Assembly: GCA_951406725.2 (NCBI GenBank)
Contig: OX597827.1
Coordinates: 7,006,001-7,070,000, forward strand
Reading direction: 5' to 3'
DNA from: Octopus vulgaris
Taxonomy: Eukaryota
DNA: 64,000 bases
Positions 1-61,418 of the stretch are shown one piece after another. Below the pieces are notes generated by a model that saw only the letters and a list, made by a program, of their open reading frames with translations, searched no databases and was not told the origin of the DNA. Numbering within the stretch: position 1 is the stretch's first letter; each line of letters begins with the position of its first letter. A program made the translations under genes and the position numbers.

Positions 1-278
1 TGACACAGAATTTCTGCATCCAATATGGCAGCAGTGTACAAGTGTCCTCCCTGTGTAACATTAAACATCAGAGCTGTTACTTCACTACTTCTCTGAAGTA
101 CATTAAACATCAGTTTGCTGTTATCGTCAAGAGATGGTACAGTATCCAATAAGTGTGTATCAGTGACAATATCTCCAATAAAGCTGTGTATATCATTGTT
201 CTCTTTCACATGGTAGGTATGATCCACACACCAACAATTGTTAACCATTAACAACACCAACGAAAGTATGTATAACAT
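1..278 (-). CDS. Protocadherin A, 5' part of ectodomain exon (signal peptide and EC1); runs off the window start
   Basis: Manual translation from ATG at 278: MLYILSLVLLMVNNCWCVDHTYHVKENNDIHSFIGDIVTDTHLLD...LYTAAILDAEILC, paralogous to the five long ORFs. Candidate acceptor AG at 296-297. Confidence 0.92.
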   Translation of the reverse strand, partial: MLYILSLVLLMVNNCWCVDHTYHVKENNDIHSFIGDIVTDTHLLDTVPSLDDNSKLMFNVLQRSSEVTALMFNVTQGGHLYTAAILDAEILC

Positions 279-2360: not shown

Positions 2361-3208
2361 TACATTCATAAATACATTATGGTAAGCAGTAAGTTTTGTA
2401 GTCTGAAGAATATCCGGTTAAGCTTTTCAGCAATTTGCTATAGATAGGGAACCTAAATTTTTGCTGTAACATGCTAAGATCTTAATATTCTATGGGGTTT
2501 CGTTTTTATCCTTTATTTTGCGGGGATACTCCCTTGATACTTATAACACATTCACTCTTTTACAACATTAGTACTCCCCAACCGTTCTATTCCTAAAGTT
2601 ATTAAGTTGCAGACTTTGAAAATGGTTCTCTTGCTTCATTGATAGGGTTCGTTTCTTAGATTTACAGTTACTGAGTCACAATCTGTAATTCACGATTTGA
2701 TGAAAAGGAAGTAAAAGATAAATAATAACAGAACACTAATTAAATGAGTTGTTGCCCTTTGATTCTGACCTAAAAATAACAAAAAACAAATAATGTCTGC
2801 CTAACAGTCTAAGCTTAAAAAATAATTTCCTTCATCACATCTCCCTTCTAATTACTAATATTTAGCATCATTCTCACATTAAACATTTGCCAATCTAATC
2901 ACAATTAAACATTCAGTAATTTAGTAATTCGCTGGAACAGTAAAATTACAAATTTTAAAATTTAGTAAAATTACATCTTTCCTAAAATTTACCATTCTAG
3001 ACGGTCTTTGAGAAATAATATTTATATTCCAGATTTGATGAATGGAAATCATGACAAGGTACAAATATCTGTGAAAAATTCTAACAATAAGTAAACTTAT
3101 TCTATTTTTACATCCTGTCTGTAACAATAGAATGAACTTGTGATTAAATAAACCATTTGAAAAACATACAAAGTTTACACAACAGAATAAGTTCTAATAA
3201 GTACTTAC

Positions 3209-3460
3209 CAACAGTTGTCAGTTATTTATATAGTTGTTGCTGTGCTGTTTCAGGGTTTTGGTAACAAAGTTATATCAGTAGCAGAAGTTCTGAGTAGTTT
3301 GGTATGTGACAGTGTTATGTAGTTCTATGGAGTTGGTTGTGTAGTGTGTAATGTGTGTTGTAGCCAATGACAAGCTGTCTTTTATTCCAGTGCAAGGAAA
3401 CGGAAATACAGCCTCCAACTTTTGCAGTTAATGATGGGCTGACTCACAGACTGGTTTACT
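3209..3460 (-). promoter_or_regulatory. Gene A non-coding 5' exon and conserved promoter-like cassette
   Basis: Minus-strand donor CTGTTG|GTAAGT with exon end at 3209. Block TAGCCAATGACAAGCTGTCTTTTATTCCAGTGCAAGGAAACGGAAATACAGC...TGACTCA recurs upstream of B, D, E and F. Confidence 0.75.
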
Positions 3461-4515
3461 TAACCCACACCCACTTACATATATATATGTGTATGTGTGT
3501 TAGTACATAAATGAATAAGGAAGAAATGTCTAATGACTAGAAGGAAGTGGACAGGCAATAAATTCAGTATGGAAAATATTGATTCAAAATAATGTTAATA
3601 TAAATGTGTAAAAGTATAAGGAACCTAACTTTAGTAACTTTATGTTACAAACTGCACATAACTCTCAGAAAAGTTATCATGGAACCAGGATAAAATTAAT
3701 TCATATAAAAGATAAATATTTGGAAATATTATTATATTAATACAATAAAACAGCAGTGGAGTCATAGAGAAAAATATTTTAGAAAATACGAAACTATGGC
3801 TATCAATAAACTTATTCATGTTCAGTAGAAATGTGTGAAGTAGAATACTGAAGAACAGCAGAATAAGAGAATGAGCAGAAAGAATGATATTTACCAAACC
3901 TTTTGCATTTGTTAGGTTAAAGGGGTTTACTTCATTTTGGATTTCATAGATTTCCTCAGAATTAATAATAATAATATTGAAGAATTTCATGAAGAACAGA
4001 AGTGGAAGGCAACTACTAATAGATTTAACTTCTACAAACTACCATAGTAAAATATTCTGTAAATCTCAGATTTTCTAACAAAACATTAACATCTTGGAGC
4101 CTTCGAAGTGAACACTGATAGCATTACACAATATAAATATAAGATTCTTAAGATTTTGCTATTTCAGAAATGGATTTGCAGAGAAGTTAGGATGTTGAAT
4201 AAAATGTTTGCTGTATTTAGTTACAAATTATTATGCACTGTGCTAAAATTGCTATGAGATTAGATTTATTTTATCAATACAATAAATGAGATTAAATTCA
4301 AACCAAATAATTGGGTTGATTTACTGTAAATTAAAATCTAAAAACAGAATCTGAAAACTAACAGAAACTAATGAATGAAACATTATTGATGCGTGTTCTA
4401 CTATGAAATGAAATATTGTTTTGTTATTAATATTTTCTTTTAATGTATTCCTTACTGGAAATGTATTGCCTGTCTTGAGAAAATAATGCTTTGTTATGTT
4501 CTTGAAATTATGCTA

Positions 4516-4847
4516 TTAGACGTCTGTTGCAGATAGAGGAGGAAGTGGAGGTACCTGGGGTGATGAAGGTACCTTTGGTAGTGTTGTTATTTTGGGTACA
4601 GCTGGCAGAGATGGTTTACAGTCTGAAGTAAACTGACTTTTCACTGGTACTGTAGAATGTTGTCCAGTTATGTTAGATGTGGTCCCAGTAATAGTCAAAG
4701 GTGTTTGGTCAATCGAACAGGAAGTGTTATTATCGACATTAGGTTGATGGTGATATCCATATTTGTTATCTCCCCTTGATCTGTTGAGTGTGTTTTGAAG
4801 TTGATTTCTTCTATTCCATGTCTGGTCACTTTGGTAACGACACAGAT
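4516..4847 (-). CDS. Protocadherin B, last exon (proline-rich cytoplasmic tail)
   Basis: Acceptor AG at 4848-4849, phase 1. (D)LCRYQSDQTWNRRNQL...LPAVPKITTLPKVPSSPQVPPLPPLSATDV*; paralogous exon in all units. Confidence 0.88.
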
Positions 4848-5456
4848 CTAAAAATATTGAGATTTTATACAAATTTACTTTGCAATGAAAAATTAAACTC
4901 TTTAAAATTTCTTTCATGCATAAAACTATTCACCATCTGTGCAGGTTTGCTTGCAAATTTTTAATTTCTAAGAAACAACTTGATAATTTATTGATAATTA
5001 AGAAGATAATTAAATTCAGATGGTTCTCATATTAACATTCTCATTTTTAATTAGGGATCAGTCTTGAAAAGGAATTTTCCAAGAAAAATATATGTAAAGA
5101 AATTTTAATAGAACATTTAATACAATCAATATCTTAACCCCTATTTCTGAAAGTGTTACAAATGGACAATAATCATTAATTTGAAATTAAATCATAGTCC
5201 TTTTCATTTGGAGACTGGTGGAATGAAAGCTCCCTTGTTTGAAAAGCATTCAATGGATTAGTTACAGAAAGAGCCTCCATGTGTAAAGCACTGTCTTAAT
5301 ATTCTACTCATCTGACTCATGCTAGCATAAGAAAAATGAACGTAAAAGGAATGAACAAACTAAATTAAATATATTTATTACACTCTCATTAGGAAATATA
5401 ATAGTTAATTTAAAAGTTTCTTACATCTGAAGAAATGCTTAGTATTTTTAACTTAC

Positions 5457-5607
5457 CTGGTAGTTCCTCATAATGTCCAGCACTACCGACACTCCAGCCA
5501 TGACCACTATCAGTTTGAGATGACAATGTTGACATCTCGTGAAATTGGTCAACACTGTTTAGTTCTCTGTAACCAGGAGACATACTTTCTTCTCTTGGAA
5601 CAAATAT
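5457..5607 (-). CDS. Protocadherin B, 151-nt cytoplasmic exon
   Basis: AG at 5608-5609, GTAAGT donor. IFVPREESMSPGYRELNSVDQFHEMSTLSSQTDSGHGWSVGSAGHYEELP; length identical in six copies. Confidence 0.92.
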
Positions 5608-7133
5608 CTGAAAATATAAATCCAATAGACCATCATAATGTTATTAAAATAGAATCCATAAATTTAAAAACAATTTTAAGAAACCTTCAGTTAGGACATT
5701 ATTTTATATCTTAACTTTTCAACAGATTACTTGTACCAAATCTAGAAATTAGACACAAATCAGCAATCAGAATATTGAAGCAATTCATAGGGTATTTTAC
5801 ATTCTTTGTCTACAAGATATCTTCAACATCTCTTAACAAAGATAACTATGACTCAAGTTTGTAATATCTGAACAAGCTTACAATAGTTTGTTAGAATCAT
5901 ACATTAAATAATTTAGTTAGCATAGTAAACTGAGGATATCAATAATATTGAACAGAGTTAGTAATTGAATATCAAAACAGCATTCAAATGTTTAAGTATC
6001 TTTTAAAATCGTATATGAGTGGTCACTAATATTATCCAAGCAACAGAGAAAAGTTATTATCCAAGCAATATAGGAATGCCTTTCTGCAGATGTTTAGTGA
6101 CAGAAGTCGCTAGTGAAGATACCAACACTTTAATGACTGGAACAAGTCATTAATCCATTGGCTGTGAAATTCCTCTGGTGCAGTAACTAACAACAACACT
6201 TGTGTGTCTGTGTGTGAACAACTTCATATCCATGGTTTTATTCAAATGCATAACAAGCGAATTCATACTGTGAGTACACAATGCTCAATAAAGTTATTTG
6301 GGACTGAAGTAAAAGGTTCTGAACATCTTGCCATGTTCCATGATGAGAGTGAGAAAATAGGAGGAACTCAATCTACAAAAATTACTTTCAGACAGGCACT
6401 AGGCATAGAATACCATAGCAAGTTGCTGGTAGAAAAGACTATTGAATCCATGTGCCTGGCTCTCTCTCCAATGTTTGATCTAGTAATGTCTTAGAGAAAA
6501 AAAAGAGAAATTCAATTGGAATTTGCTCTTAAGTTGGCGATATTGCTTCTAGCACTCTCCTGCATGTGGTTTAGCAGTTACGCCTCGTATGTTAGCAAAG
6601 AGGGAATTAACCAATGTTTGCTTGGAATGTTCTAGAACATTCGACAGGGGAGACAGCTGTAGTTGATTCCCAACGAATATTTTGCTGGCTACGAACCTGT
6701 TTCAAATAGCGTTGCCTACAGATGAAAATAGCAAACATGTTTTATTCACATCTATAGTTTACTGCATATATATGAGAACTCTAGTACAGCTAAGAAAATT
6801 ATCAATTATTTAATATACTGTGAATATAATATTCCTCTGACATTAAAGATAATTTGTGGGAGTCGAAAAATTTGTATCTTCTCAATTTCCTTTGCAGTAT
6901 TCATATGGTGCTTCTCTTCAAAGAACTAACTGTAAAATGTATGAAAATATATAGCAGACACAGCTACGTTAGAGAGAACAAATTAAATGCTTAATAGAGT
7001 GAGTTGTATACAAGGAGAACAATTTCAAAATATTTACTTAAGATGGTTGCTCTGAAACATACATAAAACAGGTTTATTTCATGCAGGAACAAATGGTCAG
7101 AATAAACATTTCCAAATAATCTAAGTAACTCAC

Positions 7134-9524
7134 CTGTTGAGGTCTTTTTAAAGTCAGATCATTCCATCTATCAGCTGACATATTTCTGCAGTAAATACCT
7201 TCCCTGTCTTCAATTGGTTGTTGAGATGACTTCAGATTCCTCTCCATTGTGCACTGAACCCCAGGAGGAACACAAGTAGGATCAAATATATATTTTGATT
7301 GCGTGTTTAATGCAGGTGTAACCTTGTGGTACATATCAACACTGTTGTTATAGTTGTTGTCTGTCTGCTTCAGTCTATGAACTATACAGATCGATATAGA
7401 GATCACTATGACAACTGATACGATCACAGCTGCTATAACAATAACAATCATCACATTCAATTGGAGACCATTACTTGATTCTGTTGTTGTCTTTGAAGAG
7501 GTCTTAAATATCTTTGATGTGCTGTTACTAACTGTTAGAGTCAAAGACAAAGTTGTTGTCGATGACAGAACTGGACTGCCACTGTCTTTCACACCTAATT
7601 CCAGTTCATAGAATCCAGCATCATTTTGGTAAAGTGAGCGAGAGAAAGATAAGACACCAGAGTGATGGTTCATTTGAAATAAGTGTTTCTCATTACCTCT
7701 GAGTATTTCATATGTGAGGAAGGCATTGTGTTGACTGTCTCTGTCAGAGGCCCTAACAACTGTGATATCATGGTCAGAGTGGGGATGGTAGTGGACATTA
7801 AGACTGAAAGGGTCAACATTAGGGAAACTGAAATAGGGAGCATTATCATTTAAATCCATCACCTCAACAACAACATTTGCTCTCTTCTCCAGTGATGGTG
7901 TTCCTTTATCTTTTACTAAAACCTTAAACTCATACAGGTTCTTTTCTTCTCTGTCTAGGGACTCAGTTGTGGAAATGAATCCCACATCAGATATCTGAAA
8001 TGGTAGAATATCTTTTCCATTAGATAATAGAGAATAGGTTAATTGTCCTCCATCTCCAATATCTGGGTCTGTGGCATTGACATATCCAACAGGGAAGTCT
8101 TTGTGTTCATTTTCATAGGTGAGAAACTTAAATATGTCCTGACTAAACTGAGGTTGTACATCATTTATGTCAGTAACCAGCACAGAAAACCGTTTCTCTA
8201 CTTTCAATGGAGGTGAACCATTATCTTGACATTTAATGGTGAAATTAAAGGTCTTCTCACTCTCTCTATCTAGTTCACTCTTGACAATAACTTTGTATTT
8301 CTTTTCAGATATTGAGATTAGCTGAATGTATTTATTTTGTAAATGACATTTCACTTGGCCATTTACTCCATTGTCATTGTCGGTAACTTTGACAAAAGCA
8401 ACAAAGCTGTGAATTTGAGTTGCTTCTGAAATGACAGCTGTGTTTCCAGTTGACTTTAAAACAAATTTAACATCAATGTTTGGTGGATTGTTAAGATGAC
8501 TGACACCATTTACAAGAACAGTAGCTCTAGAAATTCTGCGAGGAATACCATTATCTTTGGCTTCAATAAACAATTCATATAATTTTCCAAACTTATATTC
8601 TTTTGTCATAAATAATTCTCCAGTTACTTTATCTAATCTGAACAGAGTTTTAATCTTTTCTGGTGTTTTAGAACTAATTATGTATGAAATTCTTCCATTT
8701 TCTCCCTCATCCATGTCTGTAGCAGAAAAATTCAATATAGGTTTGTTTATTTGGTGCTTATCATTTACAGTTATATTGTAGGTACTCTGAGAGAATACAG
8801 GTGAGTTATCATTTTTGTCTTCCACTAAGATATTTATATCCATTACACCTTCCTTTGGTGGTGTTCCCCCATCTGTAGCAATTAGTTGGATATGATAATT
8901 AGATTTTGTTTCTCGGTCTAAATTCTTTTCCAGAACTAGCTCAAGTAAATTAGTTTCACTTAAATCATGTGATAAGACCAATTTAAAAGGAATATCTTCA
9001 TCCTCTTTCAATTTATAATTGATCTTTGTGTTCTGAATACTGACATCTTTGTCAATGGCATTTGGAAGTGTTTCTTTTCTTCCTATCAATGCATTTTCAT
9101 CATATTGCAGGTGAACTTCCTTATTTGGAAATATCGGAGAATTATCATTAGCATCTTCTATCATAACTTTGATTTCCAATATCTTGAGAAAAGAATGGCC
9201 ATGCTGAACTGCTATTTCCAATATTCTGAAGCATTCCACATTATATTGACACAGAATTTCTGCATCCAATATGGCAGCCGTGTATATTCGTCCTCCAGGT
9301 GTAACATTAAACAACTGAACATCTCCATCTGTATTACTCTGAAGTACTTTAAATTTCAGTTTGTTGCTATTATCCTGAGACTGTATATTATCCAGTAAGT
9401 GTGTATCAGTGACAATATCTCCAATATAACTGTTTAAATCATTGTTCTCTTTCACATGATAAATATGATCCACACACCAGGAGCTCTCAGCCATCAACAG
9501 CACCAACAATACCATTGACAACAT
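7134..9524 (-). CDS. Protocadherin B, ectodomain/TM exon (signal peptide, 6 cadherin repeats, TM); spliced product ~957 aa
   Basis: ORF 7074-9539 with cadherin motifs (DANDNSPIF, LDRE, ATDPD, DLNDNAPYF) and hydrophobic TM. Acceptor at 9559-9560, first ATG at 9524, phase-0 donor CAG|GTGAGT at 7134. Exon sum stays in frame. Confidence 0.95.
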
Positions 9525-9749
9525 GACTACAATCTTCAATTGTCTTTGATATATTAATCTGAAATGGAAATAGATATATAGAGGATAACATCCAATATAC
9601 AGAATATATCTCTAGATATTGCTTCCATACCAATACATCATAATTTATGTCAAAATATCAATTACCATCATTAAGTAGCATAAATTCTTGCAAAATTTTT
9701 TCTTATTGATCAGTGACAATGAGAATTGTGAAAATTTGATTACCAACTG

Positions 9750-10915: not shown

Positions 10916-12640
10916 AAACAAATTTTTTTTTTTTACTCTGCAAAGAGATAGACTTTTCATAACTTAGCACTAGACATGTAAACTTCAAGAGAAGAGTGGA
11001 AAATCATGTCTAAAAAGTTATTTTCTTTAAGTTGAATTAGCCCTTGAAAGAAGAAAATCAGGTATTTCAGTTGTGGGTTTGTACCATAGAAGCTGAAAGT
11101 GTTTGACTGTCAGTGTCTCCAAGTTTGAAAGAAGGAAGGAAGAATATTACATCCAAGCCAGAGACCTGAATTAAAAGCCCCTAACAGAGAATATATCACT
11201 GAAGACACACAAGCATCCGATGGCGATGTTATATAGACAGAAAAAGTTTTTGTAACTTTACTCTGTTACAGCTCATCTCTGGCAATAAAACAATGATTAT
11301 GTATTGCCAGTGATCTTCTCTTGACAGGGCAACCAACAACATTGCTTTTACAAAAGGGACACTCCAACATTTGCCATGGGATTATGGATTTGCCAGAACT
11401 CTCCATGAGATACATTACTATTACAATTACAGAAATATTGAAAGTTGATATTTATGAGAATCCTCAATATTTTATATGGTTCTGTGATCCTATAGAGGAT
11501 CTGCTAGCAACAGAACACAGCAATGAGTTCTACAAGTTTTAATCAGTACATGTCTTGCAAACAACTTGCACATGCAAGTGCTACCAGTCATAAAACTCCA
11601 CATACAGGAAGCCAGCTAGTGTATGGGGTCATCAGGAGAGAATGCGCGCCGTTTCGGGGCCTACCGCTTGACATTATCATGAAAACAGTCTTGTATTAAA
11701 ATCAACCCATACATACTCTACATCCAAAGTAGCTGTTCAAACTGCTAGAAATAAGGGATAAATCATCCTCAAATCACATTCTACCCTTTTGGAAATGGAT
11801 TCATTGAGTAAGGTAGAACCGACCTTTCATAGCATTGGAATCAGGCAAAATGATCATAGTCGGAAGGCTTACTTGATGAGCGGTGACCTGGGTCTAAACA
11901 ACAGCAACAAGACTAACACCTGAATTTCTTCCACAAATGAGTGAGTCCTAGGAGTCAATTTATCTGTTATGAGTAGTTGACAAATTTTCTTGCCATTAAA
12001 AAAAAGGAACACATTATACAAAGTAGCCTTTGATATTACTAAAAAGATAAGATGACTATGGCTGCAATGACTTTGATCATTGGATCTTTTCAGACAAGTT
12101 GACCAAGGGTTAAACTACAAGTTCAATAACTGCAACAGATAAATAACCTCACAACTGGTGATGAGAAATCAGAATAGCCTCCCTTGATTATTAAAAGTCT
12201 ACTTTTCTACTCTGACCTCAGTTCCTGTATAGATGGAGTATTTTGAAGATAATATCCTACTTAACTTATACACAAAGGAAAAAAATTAATCAAGATATTC
12301 TATTGTAAACCATTTTCTTTGATTACAATAATATCCGATTATTAACCAGTTTGTTGGCTCAGGTAACAATATATATAAAAAAGAATGATAGTAAAAAATA
12401 TTGATGGTTTAAAGATGTTAAATATTTGAAAAAATAACAGAACTTATTTAAAAAGTATTTTGTAGTGCTGGTATTTATATATACTATAGTATGTGACAAT
12501 TTAATTGTCTATTAAAGTGAGAGAATAGTATTCAAGTTAACACATTGTCTGTTATTCAGAAAGTTATTTTTATCAACATAAATAACAGAGAGATTACCAA
12601 ATGACTAAAATACAGATAAAAAGTTTTAATAAGTACTTAC

Positions 12641-12895
12641 CAACAGTTGTTATATATTTTTAAAGTTGTTACTGTACTGTTTAAAAGTTCTGGCATCAAA
12701 AAGTTGTAGTAGTAGCAGGAATTCTGAGCAGTTTGACATGTAATAGTGCTATGTAGTTCTATGAAGTGGGCTGTGTAGTATGTAATGTGTGCTGTAGCCA
12801 ATGACAAGCTGTCTTTTATTCCAGTGCAAGGAAACGGAAGTACAGCTTCCAGTTCTTGCAGTTAATAATGGGCTGACTCACAGACTAGTTTACTT
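12641..12895 (-). promoter_or_regulatory. Gene B non-coding 5' exon and conserved promoter-like cassette
   Basis: Donor CTGTTG|GTAAGT at 12641; CCAAT at 12798, ACGGAAGT and TGACTCA. Splicing to 9558 creates an in-frame TGA upstream of the ATG, so the exon is UTR. Confidence 0.75.
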
Positions 12896-13767
12896 AAGCC
12901 CACACACATACATATACATATCTATGTGTTACAGAATGAATAAGGTAGAATATATAATGTCTAGAATACTGAGGCAAAGCAATAAACTTATGAAAATATG
13001 ATTAAATATTTAGTTTTCCAAGATTTTTTAAAAAAATCTTTATATTATAAATTTGGTAAAAGTTGGAAAAGTTTCCAACATCAAAAGTTTAAAATTTTCA
13101 ATAACTTTTGCAAACCCACCATTATTTAGTAAAATTTTGGCAAAATTTATTAAAAAATACCCTTAAATGCTTTTCAATATATTTAACTCTTAATACTAAT
13201 TTCAAAATACGAAATTATGGCTTTGAATTATAGGCTCAACAATAATCAACATATGAAATGACTTTCTACACCTAAATGAATTTAGATTTAGAAGCTTAAA
13301 ATACTTATTTCAAAACAATAAGACTATATATATTTGTATTATTTGTATGCTGTCTGTTACTATATATATAGTCCAGCTAACTGGACTAATAAAGAATATT
13401 TTCTGATTATTGGAGGGTTTTTTTTTTTAACAATTATCAACTAATCAACAACTGATTTAATTATTTGTTACATTTCGATAATTACTTTTTTCCTTACACT
13501 ACATTAAAATATAGCAGCAAAGGTTTGTAGAAGTTTGAGGATCTTAGTGGACTTCAAAAACATTTTCTTATTTAGAATGACAGACTTTGATATTTTCCTT
13601 CTTACAAAGAATTAAATTTATCATAGCTATTGCATATGACTGAAGAAAATGTAGCCATACAAAAACAATATATAAATATATATATATAACATTAATTACT
13701 ATTTTACTAGTAAGATTTAATGAAATTTTATATCAATAGTTTTATGTGCATATTTGTGCATTGTTAG

Positions 13768-14069
13768 TTAATGTTCGATATTTGTTGGAGGCGCCTGATG
13801 TATCGAAGGTACTTTTGGTAGTGTTGTCACCTTAGGTACAGATGGTAGAGGTGGTATACAGATTGCCATTGCTACTGAAGGTGGTTGTTCAATTATGTTA
13901 GATGTGGTACCTGTTATAGTCAAAGGTATTTGGTCAGGGCAACAGGAAGTGTTCACGTCAACATTAGGTTCAGAGTTACATCCATTGTTATCTCCCCTTG
14001 ATCTGTTCAGTGTGTGTGGTAATTGGTTTCTTGTATTCCATGTGCGATCACTTTGGTAGCGACACAGAT
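13768..14069 (-). CDS. Orphan module C, last cytoplasmic exon (open, splice site intact)
   Basis: AG at 14070-14071. (D)LCRYQSDRTWNTRNQLPHTLNRSRGDNN...PPLPSVPKVTTLPKVPSIHQAPPTNIEH*. Confidence 0.7.
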
Positions 14070-15110
14070 CTGTAGAAATAGGGATTGAAGATTGACATCT
14101 CACTCAGAATTATAATAAAAATGTCAGTAAGTTCTGTAGTCTCTTGGTTACAACAAATATATATGGAAACATTTATTTTGAGTGATTTTAAGATATCTTT
14201 GGTACAAAATTTATTGAAAGAAATTCCTAAATTAAATTCATTTTTTTACAGTATTCTTTTATTTGATGATATATATATGTTTAAGTTCCTTGATTAAAAA
14301 ATATCAATATAATATCTAACCAGTGTAAAATAGAAACATGTTTGAGAAGTTTGCTTCGTATCCATTTATTTCCTACTCATAGAAATTGTTCAGCTAAATT
14401 TGATGATCTTTTATGTCATCTTTTTTTCAAGGAGCAGTTTGATGCATTGGGGAACAGTCGATGGCATTAGAGAGCATTGAAGGCGGCGAGCAGGCAGAAA
14501 CATTACCGCGCCATGCGAAATGCTTAACGGTATTTCGTCTGTCGTTACGTTGTGAAGCTGCTGGAGACTTTGGTCAAGCTTTGGGTGGTGTTGCTGCTTG
14601 GAGGCCACATATGTGTGAAAGCAGGACTCAGTACCTTGCCATATCTCCAGGAAGAATCAGAAGTGGTTGTAGAAGAAATTCTGTGATTTCATCAGCTCCG
14701 ATTTCTGTCTCCCACCCAATTACACATATTGTAATCTTATTGGCACTATGAGTGGGGCAAGGCCAAAAATGGTATCAACTACTTTTCTTGCAACACCAAG
14801 GCCAATCTGGTGACCAAGATCAAGGAGGTGTTTCAAGATCTACTCGGTGACACAGTGAGGAACACATTTGCCAGGTTCTGGAGTTGTCTTGAAGCCATGG
14901 TGGAAGCCAAGGAAATAGTTGGCATTGCAACGAGTATCCAACCATAGAAACCAAGCCAAAAAGGAAACTAATGAGCGAACACACCAAACTGACTGAGGTA
15001 ACCTCTCCAACCCATGCCAGCATGGAAAGTGGATGTAAAAAACCATGATGGTGAGGATTTACATAAATTATGATCTGCCACTGCAGAGATATTAGGCATA
15101 TTTAACTGAC

Positions 15111-15261
15111 CTGATAGTTCTTCATAGTGTCCAGCATTGCTGACACTCCATCCATGACCACAGTCCGTGGTAGATGACAATGTTGACATCCCACTGAAGG
15201 GGTTAGTGCTGTTTAGTTCTTTATAATTTGGTGACATACTTTCTTCTCTTGGAACAAATAT
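15111..15261 (-). CDS. Orphan module C, 151-nt cytoplasmic exon (open, splice sites intact)
   Basis: AG at 15262-15263, GTCAGT donor. IFVPREESMSPNYKELNSTNPFSGMSTLSSTTDCGHGWSVSNAGHYEELS. Confidence 0.7.
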
Positions 15262-15729
15262 CTATAAAAAAACAAAAAAACAAATGAGAAATAGAAAAAT
15301 ATTCTGAAGAATTGCAATAGATAAATGGTAATAGGTGATTCAATGAATAAACCAAAACCTATAACTTCCACATTAAGTTCCCTTAAAGAATAATTAAATT
15401 TCGTCACAACAGCAAAGGTTGAAATATTAATTAACGTATGTTATAGGATTCAAAGAATAAAAATGAAGTTATTCAATATTAAAAGAATTTTGAAAGAATA
15501 TAGCTATTTATGCTTTTATTGATTCTAAATGTCTGATGCAATATTTGAAATAAAATATATCAAAGAATTTTACTTTTTACAAGCTCTGATAAATTTTTAG
15601 TCTTTATGAAATAATTTCAATGTAGAATAAACATTTTGTTCACCCCATCTCAAATTTTGAAAAAAACCCCAGGCAAATAGGACAGTTTAATTAGAAAAAC
15701 AACTCTGAATAGATTATTAAAAATCCCAC

Positions 15730-16165
15730 CTGTTGATGATCTCTTAGGCTCAGATCTACCCATTGGTCAGATACACTTCTGCAGTGAATATCTTCTCTGT
15801 CTACCATTAGTTGCTGAGATTTCTTAAGATTTTTTTTTCCACTGTGTACTGAACCCCAGGAGGAACACAGGTAGGGTCAAATATATATTTTGATTGGCTG
15901 TTTAATGCAGGTGTAACCTTGTGGTACATATCAACAATGTTGTTATAGTTGTTGTCTGTCTGCTTCAGTCTATGAACTATACAGATCGATATAGAGATCA
16001 CTATAACAACTGATACAATCACAGCTGCTATAACAATAACAATCATCACATTCAATTGGAGACCATTACTTGATTCTGTTGTTGTCTTTGAAGGGGTCTT
16101 AAATATATTTGATGTGTTCTTACTAACTGTTAGAATCAAAGACTAAATTATTGTTGATGACAGAA
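15730..16165 (-). pseudogene. Orphan module C, truncated remnant of the ectodomain exon (end of EC6, TM, juxtamembrane)
   Basis: Homology to paralogs stops at ~16165. TTG>TAG near 16143-16145, +2 frameshift in the T run at ~15830-15838, donor GTGGGA at 15730. No EC1-EC5 or promoter block found before D's last exon. Confidence 0.85.
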
Positions 16166-17675: not shown

Positions 17676-18010
17676 TTAATACAGTGTTTCCGTAGAGTTA
17701 CTGTGCATATTTTTTACTATGGAAACTGAAGGTACCTGAGGTATTGAAGGTACTTTTGGTTGTGCTGTTGCTTTAGGTACAGCTGGTAGTGCTGGTTTAC
17801 TGTTCGAAGTAAAGTGACTTGTCATTAGTACAGTAGATGGTTGTTCAGTTATCTTAGATGTATTATCAAATATAGTCAAAGGTATTTGGTTATCAGTGGT
17901 ATTGTCACCATTAGGTTGATATCCATTATTATCTCTCTTTGAACCACTGGGCGTGCATGGAAGTGGATTTCTCCTGTTCCACGTATGGTCACTTTGATAA
18001 CAGTACAGAC
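17676..18010 (-). CDS. Protocadherin D, last exon
   Basis: AG at 18011-18012. (G)LYCYQSDHTWNRRNPLP...QIPLTIFDNTSK... continues in frame into ORF 17676-17879. Confidence 0.85.
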
Positions 18011-19888: not shown

Positions 19889-20039
19889 CTGGCAGTTCCT
19901 CATAGTGATCAGCACTACCAACAACCCAGTCATGCCCACTATCAGTATGAGTGGACATTGCTGATATCTCATTGAATTCGTTAGGTCTGTTTAGCTCTTG
20001 GTAACCAGGAGATGAACTTTCTTCTCTTGGGAGAAATAC
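19889..20039 (-). CDS. Protocadherin D, 151-nt cytoplasmic exon
   Basis: AG at 20040-20041, GTTAGT donor. VFLPREESSSPGYQELNRPNEFNEISAMSTHTDSGHDWVVGSADHYEELP (manual translation). Confidence 0.9.
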
Positions 20040-20299
20040 CTAAAGTTTGAGACGTTATAATGAAGAGAAAATTTGAAGAAAGAAAAAAAAAAACAAATAC
20101 ACAGTTCAAGAGTAAAGCCAAAACCTGCAGCTGACATATATTACTAAGTTCCATAAAAGTATTTTCAGCCAACAAACATTAAATTAAACAAAATACATCA
20201 CTGTATGTGATGCTTATAAAGTACAGATAGAAATAAGAAAAAAACTACAGATGATGGTATTTGATAATTTAAGAATTTTGTAAGACTATATGGATTTAT

Positions 20300-20617: not shown

Positions 20618-20858
20618 AGATATATACATCAATGAAACAGTGAACAATAAAGTATAAAAAATTTAAAACCAATCATTTCAATCAATACACAAATCAATGA
20701 CTAATGCAACAGAATGATCAGGGCTTGTCAAATATCTCATCTTCAAGGAAGAGTTTATCTTCAAGTCATTTATACTGACTCACATTTTGGAAAAATTCTG
20801 ATATAGGACATCTTTTTTTTTTTAAAGTAATTCTAAAAATATAACTGAAAAATCTCAC

Positions 20859-23255
20859 CTGATGATGTTTTACTGAAGCTGGTTCAACCCGTCTGTCATT
20901 TGTCATAGTCCAGCAGTGAATATCTTCTCTGTCTACCATTGGTTGTTGAGATTTCTTCACATTTCTCTCCAATGTGTACTGAACTCCAGGAGGAACACAA
21001 GCAGGATAAAACATATATCTTGATTGCATATTTAATGCTGGTATAACACCATGGTACATATCAACACTACTATTATAGTTTCTATTTGTCTGCTTCAGTC
21101 TATGAACTATACAGATCGATATAGAGATCACTACGACAACTGATACGATCACAGCTGCTACAACAATAACAATCATCACATTCAATTGGAGACCATTACT
21201 TGATTCTGTTGTTGTCTTTGAAGGGGTCTTAAATATCTTTGATGTGTTCTTACTAACTGTGAGAGTCAAAGACAAAGTTGTTGTCGATGACAGAACTGGA
21301 CTGCCACTGTCTTTCACACCTAATTCCAGTTCATAGAATCCAGCATCATTTTGGTAAAGTGAGCGAGAGAAAGATAAGACACCAGAGTGATGGTTCATTT
21401 GAAATAAGTGTTTCTCATTACCTCTGAGTATTTCATATGTGAGGAAGGCATTGTGTTGACTGTCTCTGTCAGAGGCCCTAACAACTGTGATATCATGGTC
21501 AGAGTGGGGATGGTAGTGGACATTAAGACTGAAAGGGTCAACATTAGGGAAACTGAAATAGGGAGCATTATCATTTAAATCCATAACCTCAACAACAACA
21601 TTTGCTCTCTTCTCCAGTGATGGTGTTCCTTTATCTTTTACTAAAACCTTAAACTCATACAGGTTCTTTTCTTCTCTGTCTAGGGACTCAGTTGTGGAAA
21701 TGAATCCCACATCAGATATCTGAAATGGTAGAATATCTTTTCCATTAGATAATAGAGAATAGGTTAATTGTCCTCCATCTCCAATATCTGGGTCTGTGGC
21801 ATTGACATATCCAACAGGGAAGTCTTTGTGTTCATTTTCATAGGTGAGAAACTTAAATATGTCCTGACTAAACTGAGGTTGTACATCATTTATGTCAGTG
21901 ACCAGCACAGAAAACTGTTTCTCTACTTTCAATGGAGGTGAACCATTATCTTGACATTTAATGGTGAAATTAAAGCTTTTTTCTCTTTCTCTATCTATTT
22001 CACTCTTGACAACAACTTTGTATTTCTTTTCAGACATTGAGATAAGCTGAAGATATCTATTTTGTAAATGACATTTCACTTGTCCATTTACTCCACCGTC
22101 ATTGTCAGTAACTTTGACAAAAGCAACAAAACTGCCAATATTAGATGCTTCTGAGATGACAGCTGTGTTTCCAGTTGACTTTAAGACAAATGTGACATCA
22201 ATTTTGGGAGGATTGTTAAGATGACTGACACCATTTATAAAAACTGTGACTGTTGATGACATAGGTGGTTTACCATTATCTCTGGCATCAATAAATATCT
22301 CGTAAATCTCACCAAAATTAAATTCTTTCTTCAAAAATAGCTCCCCTGTTGCCTCCTCTAATTTAAAGCTTTCTTTTATCCTTTTAGGTGTTTTAGCATT
22401 ATTAAAGACATAAGAAATTCTTCCATTTTCCCCTTTATCTAAGTCTGATGCAGAGACCTTAACAAGAGGCTTGCTTCTCTGGTATGTATCATTTATAGTG
22501 ACATTGTAAATATTCTGGGAGAAAACAGGGAAATTATCATTTTTATCTCCCACTAATATTTTTATATCCAATACACCTTCCTTTGGTGGTGTTCCTTGAT
22601 CTTTGGCAATTAACTGAATATTGTACATATCTTTTGTCTCACGGTCTAAGGAACCTTCTAAAATTAGTTGCAATAAATCAGTTCCACGTAACTTAGAAAC
22701 AACCAATTGAAAAGGGACATTTTCATTTTCCTTCAGTTGATAATTGAGTTTAGAATTCCGAGAGCTAATATCGTTATCAATCGCATTTGGAATGATTTCT
22801 TTGATTCCTTTTGTCACACTTTCATCAAATGACACTTGAAATTCCTTATTTGGAAACATGGGAGAATTATCATTGACATCTTCTATTATAACTTTGATTT
22901 TTAATATCTTGATAACAGAATGGCCATGTTGAACTGCTACTTCCAAAATCCTGAAGCATTCCACATTAAATTGGCACAATGTTTCTGCATCCAATATGGC
23001 AGCTGTGTACAGCTGTCCTCCAGGTGTAACATTAAATAACTGAACACTTCCATCAGTACTACTCTGGAGTATTTTAAATGTCAGTTTGCTTCTATCATCT
23101 TGAGTCTGTATATCATCTAGTAAGTGCGTATCAGTGACAATATCTCCAATATAATTGTTTATATCATTGTTCTCTTTCACGCGGTAGCTATGATGCACAC
23201 ACCAGCAGCTTTCAGTCATTAACAACACCAACAGTATCACTGATAACATCTTCAT
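20859..23255 (-). CDS. Protocadherin D, ectodomain/TM exon; spliced product ~960 aa
   Basis: ORF 20766-23330; acceptor at 23275-23276, ATG at 23255 (MKMLSV...), donor CAG|GTGAGA at 20859. Confidence 0.95.
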
Positions 23256-30713: not shown

Positions 30714-30818
30714 TACTTTTTTGCTAATATTCTTTTTCTCCAAATGATAAACTGTGAAATATTACTAAATGTTTGAATAACAAATATACACAAGAAATAA
30801 CTTGTAATGAATACTTAC

Positions 30819-38998: not shown

Positions 38999-41389
38999 CT
39001 GATTGTTTTCTCTTGAAGCCTGATCATTCCATCTATAAGACATAGTTCTGCAGTGAATATTGTCTCTGTCTACCATTGGTTGTTGAAATTTTTTCACATT
39101 TCTCTCCATTGTGTACTGAACTCCAGGAGGAACACAGGTAGGGTCAAATGTATATTTCGGTTGGATGTTTAATGTAGGTGTAACCTTGTGGTACATATCA
39201 ACACTGTTGTTATAGTTGCTGTCTGTCTGCTTCAGTCTATGAACTATACAGATTGATATGGAGATCACTATGACAACTGATACGATCACAGCTGCTATAA
39301 CAATAACAATCATCACATTCAATTGGAGACCATTACTTGATTCTGTTGTTGTCTTTGAAGGGGCCTTAAATATCTTTGATGTGGTGTTACTAACTGTTAG
39401 AGTCAAAGACAAAGTTGTTGTCGATGACAGAACTGGACTGCCACTGTCTTTCACACCTAATTCCAGTTCATAGAATCCAGCATCATTTTGGTAAAGTGAG
39501 CGAGAGAAAGATAAGACACCAGAGTGATGGTTCATTTGAAATAAGTGTTTCTCATTACCTCTGAGTATTTCATATGTGAGGAAGGCATTGTGTTGACTGT
39601 CTCTGTCAGAGGCCCTAACAACTGTGATGTCATGGTCAGAGTGGGGATGGTAGTGGACATTCAGACTGAAAGGGTCAACATTAGGGAAACTGAAATAGGG
39701 AGCATTATCATTTAAATCCATAACCTCAACAACAACATTTGCTCTCTTCTCCAGTGATGGTGTTCCTTTATCTTTTACTAAAACCTTAAACTCATACAGG
39801 TTCTTTTCTTCTCTGTCTAGGGTCTCAGTTGTGGAAATGAATCCCACATCAGATATCTGAAATGGTAGAATATCTTTTCCATTAGATAATAGAGAATAGG
39901 TTAATTGTCCTCCATCTCCAATATCTGGGTCTGTGGCATTGACATATCCAACAGGGAAGTCTTTGTGTTCATTTTCATAGGTGAGAAACTTAAATATGTC
40001 CTGACTAAACTGAGGTTGTACATCATTTATGTCAGTAACCAGCATACAAAACTGTTTCTCTACTTTCAATGGAGGTAAACCATTATCTTGACATTTAATG
40101 GTGAAATTAAAGCTCTTCTCACTCTCTCTATCTATTTCACTCTTGACAACAACTTTGTATTTCTCTGCAGATACTAAGATTAGCTGAAGATATCTGTTTT
40201 GTAAATGACACTTCACTTGTCCATTTTCTCCACTGTCAGTGTCAGTAACTTTGACATAAGCAACAAAACTGTGAATTTTAGATGCTTCTGAGATGAAAGC
40301 TGTTTTGTTTCCTGCTGACTTTAAGATAAATTTTACATGGATTTTTGGTGGATTATTAAGGTAACTGATCCCTTTAATAAGGATGGTGGCTGTTGAAGAC
40401 ATAGGTATTTTTCCATTATCTGTGGCTTCAACTAACAATTTATAGATTTTTCCAAATTCAAATTCTTTCTTCACAAATAATTCTCCAGATGTCTGATTTA
40501 AAATAAAGAATTTCTTATCTTTATCTAAGGTGTCAGGACTGAATGTATACAGAATTTGTCCATTCATACCCTGATCTACATCTGTAGCAGTTAAATTCAA
40601 AATAGGTTTATGCAAATTCTGTGTATCTTTTACTGTGACATTATAAATACTTTGGGAGAATACAGGTGCATTGTCATTCTTATCTCTTACTAAAATATGG
40701 ATGGCCATATCTGCTTGTTTTGGAGGAGATCCCCCATCTGTAGCCATTAGAAGAAGATCGTAATTTTTCTTCATTTCTCTGTCTAGTTTTCCATTCAGAA
40801 TTAATTCTATTTTACTTTTCCGGTCAGAAATTTTTATTACCATTAATTGGAAAGTTTTATTAATATTATTCCTCAGTTCATAAGAAAGCTTTGAGTTCTG
40901 AATACTGACATCTTTGTCAATGGCATTTGGAAGTGTTTCTTTTCTTCCTTTTAATGCACTTTCATCAAATGCTAACTGAAATTCTTTGTTTGGGAAAATG
41001 GGAGAATTATCATTGACATCTTCTATCATAACTTTGATTTCTAATATCTTGAGAAAAGAATGACCATGGTGAACTGCTATTTCCAATATCCTGAAACATT
41101 CCACATTATATTGACACAGAATTTCTGCATCCAATATGGCAGCTGTGTGCAGTTGTCCTCCAGGTGTAACATTAAACAATTGAACACTTCCATCAGTATT
41201 ACCCTGGAGTATATTAAATGTCAGCTTGTTGCTGTTATCTTGAGACTGTATATTATCCAATAAGTGTGTATCAGTGACAATATCTCCAATAAAGCTGTGT
41301 ATATCATTGTTCTCTTTCACATGGTAGGTATGATCCACACACCAACAATTGTTAACCATTAACAACATCAATAATATTAAGGTAAACAT
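38999..41389 (-). CDS. Protocadherin E, ectodomain/TM exon; spliced product ~945 aa
   Basis: ORF 38990-41440; acceptor at 41422-41423, ATG at 41389 (MFTLIL...), donor CAG|GTAAGA at 38999. Confidence 0.95.
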
Positions 41390-48374: not shown

Positions 48375-50750
48375 CTGTTGATGTGTTTCAGTGAAAGCTG
48401 GTTTACCCCATCCATCACTGCAGTGAACACCTTCCATATCCATCATGGGTTGTTGAGATTTGCTCATGTTTCTCTCCAATGTGTACTGAATACCAGGAGG
48501 AACAAATATATATTTCGATTGGGTGTTTAATGCAGGTGTAACCTTGTGGTACATATCAACACTGTTGTTATAGTTGCTGTCTGTCTGCTTCAGTCTATGA
48601 ACTATACAGATCGATATAGAGATCACTACGACAACTGATATGATCACAGCTGCTACAACAATAACAATCATCACATTCAATTGGAGACCATTACTTGATT
48701 CTGTTGTTGTCTTTGAAGGGGTCTTAAATATCTTGGATGTGCTGTTACTAACTGTTAGAGTCAAAGACAAAGTTGTTGTCGACGACAGAACTGGACTGCC
48801 ACTGTCTTTCACACCTAATTCCAGTTCATAGAATCCAGCATCATTTTGGTAAAGTGAGCGAGAGAAAGATAAGACACCAGAGTGATGGTTCATTTGAAAT
48901 AAGTGTTTCTCATTACCTCTGAGTATTTCATATGTGAGGAAGGCATTGTGTTGACTGTCTCTGTCAGAGGCCCTAACAACTGTGATATCATGGTCAGAGT
49001 GGGGATGGTAGTGGACATTAAGACTGAAAGGGTCAACATTAGGGAAACTGAAATAGGGAGCATTATCATTTAAATCCATAACCTCAACAACAACATTTGC
49101 TCTCTTCTCCAGTGATGGTGTTCCTTTATCTTTTACTAAAACCTTAAACTCATACAGGTTCTTTTCTTCTCTGTCTAGGGACTCAGTTGTGGAAATGAAT
49201 CCCACATCAGATATCTGAAATGGTAGAATATCTTTTCCATTAGATAATAGAGAATAGGTTAATTGTCCTCCATCTCCAATATCTGGGTCTGTGGCATTGA
49301 CATATCCAACAGGGAAGTCTTTGTGTTCATTTTCATAGGTGAGAAACTTAAATATGTCCTGACTAAACTGAGGTTGTACATCATTTATGTCAGTAACCAG
49401 CATTGAAAACTGTTTCTCTACTTTCAATGGAGGTAAACCATTATCTTGACATTTAATGGTGAAATTAAAGCTCTTTTCTCTTTCTCTATCTATTTCACTC
49501 TTGACAACAACTTTGTATTTCTTTTCAGACACTGAGATTAGCTGAAGATATCTGTTTTGTAAATGACACTTCACTTGTCCATTTTTTCCACCGTCATTGT
49601 TGGTAACTTTGACATAAGCAACAAAACTGCCAATTTTAGATGCTTCTGAGATGAAAGCTGTGTTTCCAGTTGACTTTATAACAAATTTGATATCAATGTT
49701 TGGTGGATTGTTAATGTGACTGATTCCATTTATTAGAATGGGAACTGTTGAAGACATTGAAGGAATACCATTATCTCTGGCTTCAACAAATAATTTATAA
49801 ATTCTTCCAAACTGAAATTTTTGCTTCAGAAACAACTCTCCTGTTGCTTCATCCAACTTAAAGCATTCTTTTATTTTATTTGGTGTTTTGGCATTACTAA
49901 AGATATAAGAAATTCTTCCACTTTCTCCTTCATCTAAATCTGTTGCAGACAACCTCAGAATAGGTTTGTTTATTCTGTGCGTACCATTTACAGTAACATT
50001 GTAGATATTTTGCGAGAAAACAGGGGAGTTATCATTTTTATCTTCTACCAATATTTGTATATGAAATATACTTTCCTTTGGTGGTGATCCTCCATCTCTG
50101 GCAATTAATAGTATATTATATACATCTTTTTTCTCACGATCCAAGTTACTTTCCAAAATTAGTTGTAATAAATCAATTCCATCTGATTTCTTAGAAACAA
50201 ACAATTTGAAAGGAATATCTTCATCTGCTTTCAGTTGATAAGAGAGTTTAGAATTCTGAACACTGAAATCTTTGTCAATAGCATTGGGAAGTGTTTCTGT
50301 CGTTCCTATCAAATCATTTTCATCAAATTGTATTTTAAGTTCCTTTTTTGGAAATATAGGATAATTATCATTGACATCTTCTATCATAACTTTGATTTCT
50401 AATATCTTCATAAAAGAATGGCCTTCTTGAACTGCTATTTCCAATATCCTGAAACATTCCACATTATACTGACAAAGAATTTCTGCATCCAATATGGAAG
50501 CTGTGTACAGTTGTCCTCCAGGTGTAACATTAAACAACTGAACACTTCCGTCGGTAACACCCTGGATAACATTAAATGTCAGTTTGTCGCTGTTATCCTG
50601 GGACTGTATATTATCCATTAAGTGTGTATCAGTGACAATATCTCCAATATAACTGTGTACATCATTGTTCTCTTTCACATGGTAGGTATGGTCCACACAA
50701 AGGCAGCTCTCAGCCAACAACAACAGCATCAACATTAATACTGGAAACAT
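48375..50750 (-). CDS. Protocadherin F, ectodomain/TM exon; spliced product ~946 aa
   Basis: ORF 48351-50750; acceptor at 50758-50759, donor CAG|GTAAAA at 48375. Confidence 0.95.
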
Positions 50751-59042: not shown

Positions 59043-61418
59043 CTGTTGATTTTCTCTTAATCTGATCATTGGCATAGTTCTGTACTGAATATCTTCTCTA
59101 TCTACCATTGGTTGTTGGGGTTTCTTCAGATTTCTCTCTACTGTGTACTGAACTCCAGGAGGAACACAGGTAGGATCAAATATATATTTTGATTGCACGT
59201 TTAATGCAGGTGTAACCTTGTGGTACATATCAACACTGTCGTTATAGTTGTTGTCTGTCTGCTTCAGTCTATGAACTATACAGATCGATATAGAGATCAC
59301 TATGACAACTGATACGATCACAGCTGCTATAACAATAACAATCATCACATTCAATTGGAGACCATTACTTGATTCTGTTGTTGTCTTTGAAGGGGTCTTA
59401 AATATCTTTGATGTGGTGTTACTAACTGTTAGAGTCAAAGACAAAGTTGTTGTCGATGACAGAACTGGACTGCCACTGTCTTTCACACCTAATTCCAGTT
59501 CATAGAATCCAGCATCATTTTGGTAAAGTGAGCGAGAGAAAGATAAGACACCAGAGTGATGGTTCATTTGAAATAAGTGTTTCTCATTACCTCTGAGTAT
59601 TTCATATGTGAGGAAGGCATTGTGTTGACTGTCTCTGTCAGAGGCCCTAACAACTGTGATATCATGGTCAGAGTGGGGATGGTAGTGGACATTAAGACTG
59701 AAAGGGTCAGCATTAGGGAAACTGAAATAGGGAGCATTATCATTTAAATCCATAACCTCAACAACAACATTTGCTCTCTTCTCCAGCGATGGTGTTCCTT
59801 TATCTTTTACTAAAACCTTAAACTCATACAGGTTCTTTTCTTCTCTGTCTAGGGACTCAGTTGTGGAAATGAATCCCACATCAGATATCTGAAATGGTAG
59901 AATATCTTTTCCATTAGATAATAGAGAATAGGTTAATTGTCCTCCATCTCCAATATCTGGGTCTGTGGCATTGACATATCCAACAGGGAAGTCTTTGTGT
60001 TCATTTTCATAGGTGAGAAACTTAAATATGTCCTGACTAAACTGAGGTTGTACATCATTTATGTCAGTGACCAGCACAGAAAACTGTTTCTCTACTTTCA
60101 ATGGAGGTAAACCATTATCTTGACATTTAATGGTGAAATTAAAGCTCTTCTCACTCTCTCTATCTAGTTCACTCTTGACAACAACTTTGTATTTCTTTCC
60201 AGAAATTGAGATAAGTTGAAGGTATCTGTTTTCTAAATGACACTTCACTTGTCCATTTGCTCCACCGTCATTGTCAGTAATTTTGACATAAGCAACAAAA
60301 CTGCCAATTTTAGATGCTTCTGAGATTACAGCTGTGTTTCCCGTTGACTTAATGACAAATCTGAAGTCAATGTTTGGTGAATTGTTAATGTGACTGATAC
60401 CATTTATGAAAACAGTGGCAGTTGAGGACAAAGGCAGTTTACCATTATCTGTGGCTTTGACAAATATTTTATAGGATTTTCCAAACTGAAATTCTGTTGT
60501 TACAAATAAGTCTCCAGTTACTCTGTTCAATCGAAAGCATTCTTTTATCTTATTAGGTGTTTTAGGACTGAGAGTATAAGAAATTTTTCCATTTTCCCCC
60601 ACATCTAAATCTGTGGCAGAAAGTCTTATGACAGGTTTGTTCATCTGGTGTGTATCATTGATAGTAATGTTATAGATATTCTGAGAGAACACTGGAGAGT
60701 TATCATTTTCGTCTTGTACTGATATTATTATATCCAGTACACCTTCCTTTTGCAGAGATCCTCCATCTCTTGCAATCAACTGAAAACTGTAAATGTCTTT
60801 TTTCTCACGATCTAAGTTGCCTTCCAAAGTTAGTTGTAATAAATCTGTTCCATCTAATTCTTTAGAAACGAACAGTTTGAAAGGAATATCTTCACCTTTT
60901 TTAAGCTGATATACAAGTTTAGAATTGTGAGTACTGACATCATTGTCCGTGGCTTTTGGAACTCTTTCTTTTGAGTCTTTTGAATCATTTTCATCAAATG
61001 TTAAATGAAATTCTTTGTTTGGGAAAATAGGATAATTATCATTAACATCTTCTATCATAACTTTGATTTCTAATATTTTCATAAAAGAATGGCCTTCTTG
61101 AACTGCTATTTCCAATAACCTGAAACATTCCACATTATATTGACATAGAGATTCTGCATCCAATATGGCAGCTGTGTACAGTTGTCCTCCAGGTGTAACA
61201 TTAAACAATTGAACACCTCCATCAGTACCACCCTGGAGTACATTAAATGTCAGTTTGTTGCTATCATCCCGAGTCTGTATATTATCCAGTAAATGTGTAT
61301 CACTGACAATATCTCCAATGAAGCTGTGTACATCATTATTCTCTTTTATATGGTAGATATGATCCACACACCGGCAGCTGTCAGTCAAAAACAACACCAA
61401 CAATATCACTGAAATCAT
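59043..61418 (-). CDS. Protocadherin G, ectodomain/TM exon; spliced product ~948 aa
   Basis: ORF 59034-61535; acceptor at 61426-61427, ATG at 61418 (MISVIL...), donor CAG|GTAAGA at 59043. Confidence 0.95.

Follow-up and report, generated by a model that had tools for sequence, protein, structure and literature searches.

The cephalopod protocadherins are a textbook convergence in gene number, and an account of how they bind was not found in print. The locus considered here, a 64,000-nt stretch of Octopus vulgaris contig OX597827.1 (the window), raises the question of why neighbouring protocadherin genes should be almost indistinguishable over one part of a single exon and strongly divergent over another. 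The initial annotation proposed that ongoing gene conversion keeps a universal cis interface while the recognition domains diversify, converging on the vertebrate barcode logic.

Five genes in the window (B, D, E, F and G) each carry six cadherin repeats (EC1-EC6) and a TM on one large exon, and Pfam Cadherin, Cadherin_2 and EC6-type matches in all five exons identify them as six-EC protocadherins of the coleoid expansion. The large exon of gene B encodes a signal peptide, EC1-EC6, the TM and the first cytoplasmic part, with a GT donor at its end. The coding features are:

7134..9524, minus strand: large coding exon of gene B, 100% identical to annotated O. vulgaris protein P0002
20859..23255, minus strand: large coding exon of gene D, 100% identical to O. 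vulgaris protein P0003
38999..41389, minus strand: large coding exon of gene E, 100% identical to O. vulgaris protein P0007
48375..50750, minus strand: large coding exon of gene F
59043..61418, minus strand: large coding exon of gene G
B 7074-9611, D 20766-23336, E 38990-41455, F 48351-50768, G 59034-61550, all minus strand: long open reading frames
1..278, minus strand: gene A, represented by its 5' end (the signal peptide and the greater part of EC1, starting at 278), continuing beyond the window
15719..16165, minus strand: copy C, a relic reduced to the last stretch of EC6, the linker, the TM and the first cytoplasmic part
5458..5612, minus strand: gene B's own cytoplasmic exon, ~152 nt
C 15112-15263, D 19889-20041, E 37005-37156, F 46665-46816, G 58578-58729, minus strand: own cytoplasmic exons of the other copies
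4519..4848, minus strand: gene B's own last coding exon
C ~13771-14073, D ~17700-18017, E ~36030-36361, F ~46040-46369, G ~56150-56490, minus strand: own last coding exons of the other copies

Relic C has a 2-nt insertion within an A run and has lost EC1-EC5 together with its own 5' exon. Two downstream coding exons with AG/GT ends are private to each of six copies, the cytoplasmic exons being 70-93% identical among one another and the last coding exons within the window 73-79%. Splicing of variable exons to shared constant exons in the vertebrate manner was not found in the window, and the copies are whole-gene duplicates without shared constant exons. None of the RNA splice joints listed (15 of 46) links gene B exons. 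The gene order G, F, E, D, C (tail exons only), B recurs in one O. sinensis model. The tail exons of relic C are still open and are attached by the annotation to gene D (P0003), likewise in the O. sinensis model.

The near-identity first noticed between 7564-8182 in gene B and 48784-49402 in gene F amounts to one difference in 619 nt, at 7860, in a synonymous Val codon. The interval had been labelled EC5-EC6-TM; it does hold EC5 and most of EC6, along with the last ~10 codons of EC4, but the TM lies outside it. Genes D, E and G are, as was also claimed, near-identical from late EC4 past the TM, with few differences per pair in the core and the linker-TM. The parts of the exon that contrast are:

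7527..8174, minus strand: gene B converted core tract (from the final 8 EC4 codons through EC5 and EC6), with near-identity on to ~7362
21252..21899, minus strand: gene D converted core tract, extending to ~21087
39389..40036, minus strand: gene E converted core tract, extending to ~39224
48747..49394, minus strand: gene F converted core tract, extending to ~48582
59421..60068, minus strand: gene G converted core tract, extending to ~59256
B 8481..9134, D 22206-22859, E 40346-40999, F 49701-50357, G 60375-61028, minus strand: EC2-EC3, the unconverted, gene-specific part

Among the five genes the 648-nt core has only 8 variable sites, each private to one copy, and 2-5 differences per pair; the linker and TM (165 nt) have 2-8 and EC2-3 (657 alignment positions, gaps counted) 150-236. 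The many substitutions and indels read in EC2-EC3 at the outset are thus borne out as regards substitutions, while indels are real but few, one codon each in EC2, EC3 and EC4. Mean dS over the ten pairs, computed for the five window genes (copies elsewhere were compared as annotated proteins), is 0.29 in EC1, 0.98 in EC2, 0.95 in EC3, 0.17 in EC4, 0.011 in EC5 and 0.023 in EC6, followed by 0.026 in the linker, 0.039 in the TM and 0.26 in the cytoplasmic part. Silent divergence is therefore strongly uneven along the exon, near zero in EC5-6 against ~0.95-0.98 in EC2-3, and the intermediate values of EC1 and EC4 make this a gradient rather than two states. Identical-run lengths and a Fisher test served in place of GENECONV: the longest identical run reaches 611 nt (D-F), and silent variation in amino-acid-invariant codons affects 6 of 206 in EC5-6 as opposed to 53 of 75 in EC2-3 (p = 1.7e-32, codons being non-independent). 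The introns have a 52-nt match in one of ten pairs, a 28-nt match in one of ten and short 70-84% matches in three of six. Such essentially unalignable introns, together with tail exons at 70-93% and 73-79%, indicate that the genes are old and that the young part is confined to one exon.

The dN/dS ratio of EC2-3 is 0.26-0.28, and domain-wide positive selection was not seen there in the five window genes. The idea that the recognition domains diversify under such selection is accordingly not upheld; diversification here is better read as escape from homogenisation. GC3 is 0.34 in the converted tract as against 0.21-0.27, a weak signal with p<0.05 in three of five non-independent copies, and at fourfold sites the contrast is equivocal, GC occupying 25 of 86 in the tract versus 12-20 of 70-80.

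Could the identity have been made by assembly or polishing, with one consensus copied over all EC5-6 regions? We regard this as extremely improbable and as largely refuted. The region 4400-9700 was compared with four runs from four studies, all short-read contigs. Relative to gene B EC5-6 these contigs show 1 difference in 301 nt (X1), 7 in 796 (X2), 1 in 499 (X7) and 1 in 374 (X8), at depths of 1418, 397, 996 and 101, respectively. Contigs specific to B (EC2-3, intron or 5' end) have depths of 48 and 37, 8-17, 48-50 and 5, a ratio of ~19-47, which is not an exact copy number since contig depth is not. The high depth implies many near-identical copies in the reads, in unspecified number. In X8, guessed to be RNA, exons are covered and ten intron bins have zero depth. 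One DNA run could underlie the assembly, not all four. The same EC5-6 thus recurs in independent short-read contigs, all eight variable sites of the core are private to single copies, and the O. sinensis and Argonauta annotations repeat the pattern with residues of their own. What speaks for an artefact is that all four read sets are contigs rather than raw long reads, and that an array of ten perfect 232-bp copies at 51135-53457 leaves room for local consensus effects.

Comparison with other octopods, at protein level, used 36 ectodomains of the subfamily: 14 from O. sinensis, 11 from O. vulgaris, 7 from Argonauta hians and 4 from O. bimaculoides. Left out of the trees were units that fail to cover EC1-EC6 in full, most of them from O. 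bimaculoides, along with 8 exact duplicates and 3 window-gene duplicates; a number of the O. sinensis rows closely resemble one another and could represent haplotypes. Within O. vulgaris, O. sinensis and Argonauta, EC5 and EC6 are 0.99 identical and EC2 and EC3 ~0.6. Between Octopus and Argonauta the EC5-6 identity is 0.80-0.85, with 32 fixed differences, one of them at the equivalent of V560, separating Argonauta from O. vulgaris/O. sinensis. Argonauta homogenises EC1 and EC4 as well (0.97). The four complete EC5-6 of O. bimaculoides are only 0.93 identical; EC5-6 is missing in part or entirely from 10 of its 14 units, EC1-4 being at least 96% covered in all 14. These losses, in proteins P0015, P0017, P0138, P0145 and P0146, are likely to be assembly gaps at the identical tract, and the missing EC5-6 may be the most similar ones.

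In the EC2-3 tree B and D each join one O. sinensis and one O. bimaculoides gene (100/100); six of the seven Argonauta genes fall together (82/92), and one-to-one orthology in EC2-3 stops short of Argonauta. In the EC5-6-TM tree, whose bootstrap is not fully settled (0.987), the 25 O. vulgaris/O. sinensis rows all fall into a single clade (98/96) and the seven Argonauta rows into another (100/100). EC2-3 therefore groups by orthologue across three Octopus species and EC5-6 by lineage, as the conversion proposal had predicted. Three EC5 residues, L513, K530 and R531, occur in 23 of 25, 25 of 25 and 24 of 25 O. vulgaris/O. sinensis units, where O. bimaculoides has M, N and T in 10 of 11, 10 of 10 and 10 of 10 (one mis-aligned unit omitted) and Argonauta in 7 of 7 each. 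No swept sites of this kind were found in the other domains. Derived residues present in nearly all copies point to new changes that spread through genes older than the changes themselves.

Sliding dS, per-domain trees and independent short-read contigs all back domain-restricted conversion of EC5-EC6(-TM), and we are highly confident that non-allelic gene conversion confined to part of one exon acts in this subcluster. It is a strong, real case of regional gene conversion, with a domain map convergent with that of vertebrates. At the broken edge of relic C six private changes fall within 60 nt, against two in the next 162 nt of linker-TM (p = 0.006), the latter being as close to the intact copies as these are among themselves; this is suggestive of conversion without need of a working recipient. 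Crossovers, and not only conversion, may act too, since, of seven O. vulgaris genes whose EC2-3 clearly matches an O. bimaculoides gene, three have their cytoplasmic match in a different one, four being in phase, in a comparison that used gapped and possibly mis-joined models. Gene B itself matches O. bimaculoides P0005 in EC2-3 (92%) and P0015 in its cytoplasmic part (89% vs 61%), possibly a head-tail swap by crossover inside the shared tract.

Other subfamilies were surveyed through 101 representatives at 90% identity, drawn from the best 120 of 929 matches, so that converted pairs are undercounted. Pairs with EC5-6 above 93% and EC2-3 below 80% identity number at least 2 of 153 in O. vulgaris and at least 37 of 903 in Argonauta among these representatives, and, with the same undercount, 0 of 153 in O. 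sinensis and 0 of 231 in O. bimaculoides. The reverse pattern, EC2-3 high and EC5-6 low, occurs in none of the 1,440 pairs in this set. The same polarity is seen in at least three further groups, of 3 O. vulgaris, 8 Argonauta and 5 Argonauta genes. EC5 and EC6 of gene B are, among the matches listed, at most 71% and 75% identical to those of other O. vulgaris/O. sinensis subfamilies, which makes the region constant per subcluster rather than universal. Between subfamilies, modal-residue conservation is 0.77 in EC5 and 0.82 in EC6 versus 0.65-0.70 elsewhere (EC1 0.65, EC2 0.68, EC3 0.65).

The account that we consider the better bet, with real reservations, is one of asymmetric selection. The genes are complete, long-established tandem copies of a protocadherin with six domains, and each has a probable promoter and cytoplasmic exons to itself. 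Neighbours repeatedly repair one another, in conversion tracts that measure a few hundred bases, have their centre in EC5-EC6 and weaken through EC4 and EC1 in one direction and through the TM in the other. EC5-6, already the most conserved part of the exon, would remain a recombination substrate, and copying it would cost nothing if the membrane-near stalk has the same job in all members of the subcluster. In vertebrate clustered protocadherins, strictly homophilic trans binding depends on EC1-4 and above all on EC2-3. Conversion of EC2-3, to judge from vertebrate structures, would overwrite binding specificity and be purged, and beyond ~25-30% divergence these domains would no longer recombine. 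The outcome would be a subcluster-specific constant region inside an exon, achieved without constant-exon splicing. That EC1, EC2 and EC3 are similarly conserved between subfamilies, with only EC1 partly converted, favours selection over mechanics alone. Against asymmetric selection are the low dN/dS of EC2-3 and the strong conservation of EC6 across octopod subfamilies, which would fit some shared binding surface.

Is the constant region then a cis interface? Octopus EC5-6 was aligned to mouse gamma-B7 (5V5X), with the register taken from the A-x-D-x-D motif and the numbering offset deduced from the 5V5X chain and the residue letters in the available text of PMC8901172. At the positions of Y532, L555, K558, V560, V562, A570 and R595 the octopus has F, D, V, R, S, A and S. 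The vertebrate EC6 cis signature (Y532, L555, K558, V560, R595) is thus absent from this subfamily. Position 560 holds R, K or S, and never V (0/95), in the 95 octopod proteins compared, R at 595 likewise occurs in 0/95, and the equivalents of 570 and 532 are A/S and F; aromatics near the vertebrate cis face are retained at F550 (93/95) and F585 (95/95). According to excerpts of PMC8901172 and PMC5106212, vertebrate cis dimers are disrupted by V560R and by L557D/V562D, an aspartate in place of L555 blocks surface delivery, and S595 is found in isoforms unable to occupy the dimer's EC6-only side. Two of the octopus replacements (L555D, V560R) equal substitutions used to break the vertebrate dimer. 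Non-clustered delta-protocadherins form no cis dimers, these being described in the portions available of PMC7082078 as a clustered-protocadherin adaptation. With D, R and S at the equivalents of L555, V560 and R595, a vertebrate-type cis dimer is unlikely, and the tract most likely does not form a surface of the EC5-6:EC6 type, judging from the residues.

The universal cis interface of the initial annotation thus gives way on two counts, the tract being subcluster-specific and the vertebrate cis core residues being replaced; of the convergence on vertebrate barcode logic, the domain-wise conversion map stands and the cis residues do not. A complex prediction for two EC5-6 copies (residues 432-650), run without an alignment, scored 0.00 and speaks neither for nor against binding. 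No binding assay of octopus protocadherins, trans or cis, was found in published full text. A new lateral or co-receptor surface is conceivable, because EC6 is the most conserved domain (0.82) and aromatics are kept on that side. We entertain, as a rather doubtful extension, parallel combinatorial codes in which EC5-6-TM of each subcluster would be a new lateral-pairing or co-receptor surface working only within that subcluster, crossovers there reshuffling recognition heads relative to cytoplasmic tails. If so, the variable/constant design would have been rebuilt without constant exons, with several codes per neuron, one per subcluster.

That selection for a newly evolved shared cis surface keeps the conversion going, allowing promiscuous pairing and combinatorial recognition as in vertebrates, is a minority hypothesis, unlikely but with some points to its credit. 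The homogenised span coincides with the vertebrate cis domains; 32 residues changed in concert between genera with copies within a genome 99% identical, as would fit a self-compatible interface; EC6 is the most conserved domain family-wide, with Y532 and A570 kept as F and A/S; and ~21 PCDH genes are expressed per O. vulgaris neuron (PMC9712504, in part). The available portions of the same source describe PCDH expression as cell-type-biased or ubiquitous, and the word 'stochastic' is absent from the paper. Also against a selected cis surface are the D, R and S already mentioned, the dimer-breaking effect of such changes and the limits on S595 isoforms, delta-protocadherins without cis dimers, a tract at most 71-75% identical to other subfamilies, and the homogenisation of relic C, which does not encode EC5-6.

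Neutral mechanics, in which EC5-6 is a hot zone for recombination or an identity trap that reinforces itself and selection has no say in the placement of tracts, would fit the homogenisation of relic C beside its broken edge, the last exon of B, where a further near-identical tract shared with two or more neighbours (98-99%; depth 5-14x) shows that tracts can arise elsewhere, and an extent that varies by lineage, Argonauta homogenising EC1 and EC4 too (97%). We think it improbable nonetheless: the same polarity is met in four octopod subclusters and in fugu, frog and mouse, it mirrors the EC1:EC4, EC2:EC3 geometry of the trans dimer (PMC8901172, in part), and across subfamilies EC1 is not better conserved than EC2 or EC3, yet of the three only EC1 converts. 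Far less probable still is recent whole-gene duplication with fast EC2-3 change, or a nucleotide-level constraint on EC5-6 (RNA structure, editing, enhancer). Octopod PCDH bursts have been dated to 8-14 Ma from pairwise distances (PMC9795677, in the text available), which counts in favour of this rival, but introns do not align and EC2-3 orthologues are older than the O. vulgaris/O. bimaculoides split. EC2-3 change is also synonymous (dS ~0.95), and EC5-6 is not frozen, 15-20% of its residues differing from Argonauta. The swept EC5 residues refute this rival, unless the tree orthology is wrong.

The work of Noonan (2004) is reportedly cited within the paper on domain-wise dS in the clustered protocadherins of Xenopus and mouse. 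In that paper, as far as its available text goes, dS is highest in EC2 or EC3 and lowest in EC5 or EC6, EC1 of mouse alpha is partly converted, and zebrafish domain values are described as much higher (PMC4978886). The ratio of highest to lowest domain dS is ~90 in the octopus (0.98/0.011) versus 2-8 in the rows for Xenopus and mouse. The large exon of fugu Pcdh2 alpha and gamma has >99% nucleotide identity in its 3' part and 60-80% in its 5' part, with a boundary in EC4 or EC5; the tract is subcluster-specific and breaks draft assemblies (excerpts of PMC1852091). The likeness lies in regional conversion of the 3' exon part, per subcluster. The octopus differs in that its expansion is independent, in a mollusc, with own tail exons and no shared constant exons, in its small GC3 rise (0.34 vs 0.21-0.27, against 54-69% vs 38-45% in fugu) and in the absent vertebrate cis residues. 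With the gamma-B7 EC5-6:EC6 cis dimer (PDB 5V5X) the octopus shares the domains that are constant within a subfamily, and F and A for Y532 and A570, but has D, V, R, S and S at L555, K558, V560, V562 and R595 (PMC8901172, PMC5106212, both in part). The vertebrate trans dimer is an antiparallel EC1-4 arrangement, in the same portions of PMC8901172.

For coleoids, the accessible portions of Albertin 2022 (PMC9068888) and Styfhals 2019 (PMC6339937) describe the same gene family and organisation as in the window: full-gene tandem duplicates in one direction, without shared constant exons (PMC9068888). Gene conversion is suggested there from whole-gene similarity; in those portions it is not localised to domains, nor are dS or discordant trees given. 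No domain-level conversion analysis for cephalopods was found in full text, though Albertin 2015, the supplementary notes of Albertin 2022, and Wang and Ragsdale 2017 may already describe one. Regional conversion is new for cephalopods as far as our searches reach, the domain pattern being already established in vertebrates.

That an independent expansion has a fish- and mammal-like domain conversion map is indirect evidence that EC2-3 carries specificity in the octopus. Its appearance without the vertebrate cis residues suggests that, in vertebrates too, the pattern may be explicable without cis dimers. Whole-gene trees and 'recent burst' dates (8-14 Ma in PMC9795677, as excerpted) mix near-zero and near-saturated signal. 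EC5-6 reads and probes are not assignable to a single gene, and the loss of EC5-6 from short-read assemblies may underlie reports of five-domain octopus protocadherins.

The last exon of gene B (4400-4848) is itself a second homogenised tract, in a cytoplasmic exon and in a subset of genes, B and at least two neighbours. Its protein is 98-99% identical to both genes of model P0136 and to three O. sinensis genes and only 76-79% to C-G, with a contig depth 5-14 times single copy. The first of the two P0136 genes begins like gene A.

Upstream of the coding exons lie further conserved elements:

12618..13009, minus strand: conserved element upstream of B, putative promoter and non-coding first exon
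A 3168-3590, D 30767-31027, E 44203-44551, F 54447-54794: matching upstream elements, one per gene

They sit 3-7.5 kb 5' of the coding exon and share an invariant ATTGG, which we take to be a CCAAT box in reverse reading, a near-invariant 45-nt core around it and a donor-like GGTAAGTA end. Copy C has no such element, nor has G, whose upstream falls beyond the window. From these sequence features, and without an RNA joint, the element is probably a promoter with a non-coding first exon, and thereby a candidate for regulation common to the whole subcluster. The 232-bp units at 51135-53457, ten in number, head-to-tail and perfectly identical, lie in the probable first intron of F and represent either a very recent array or a consensus artefact.
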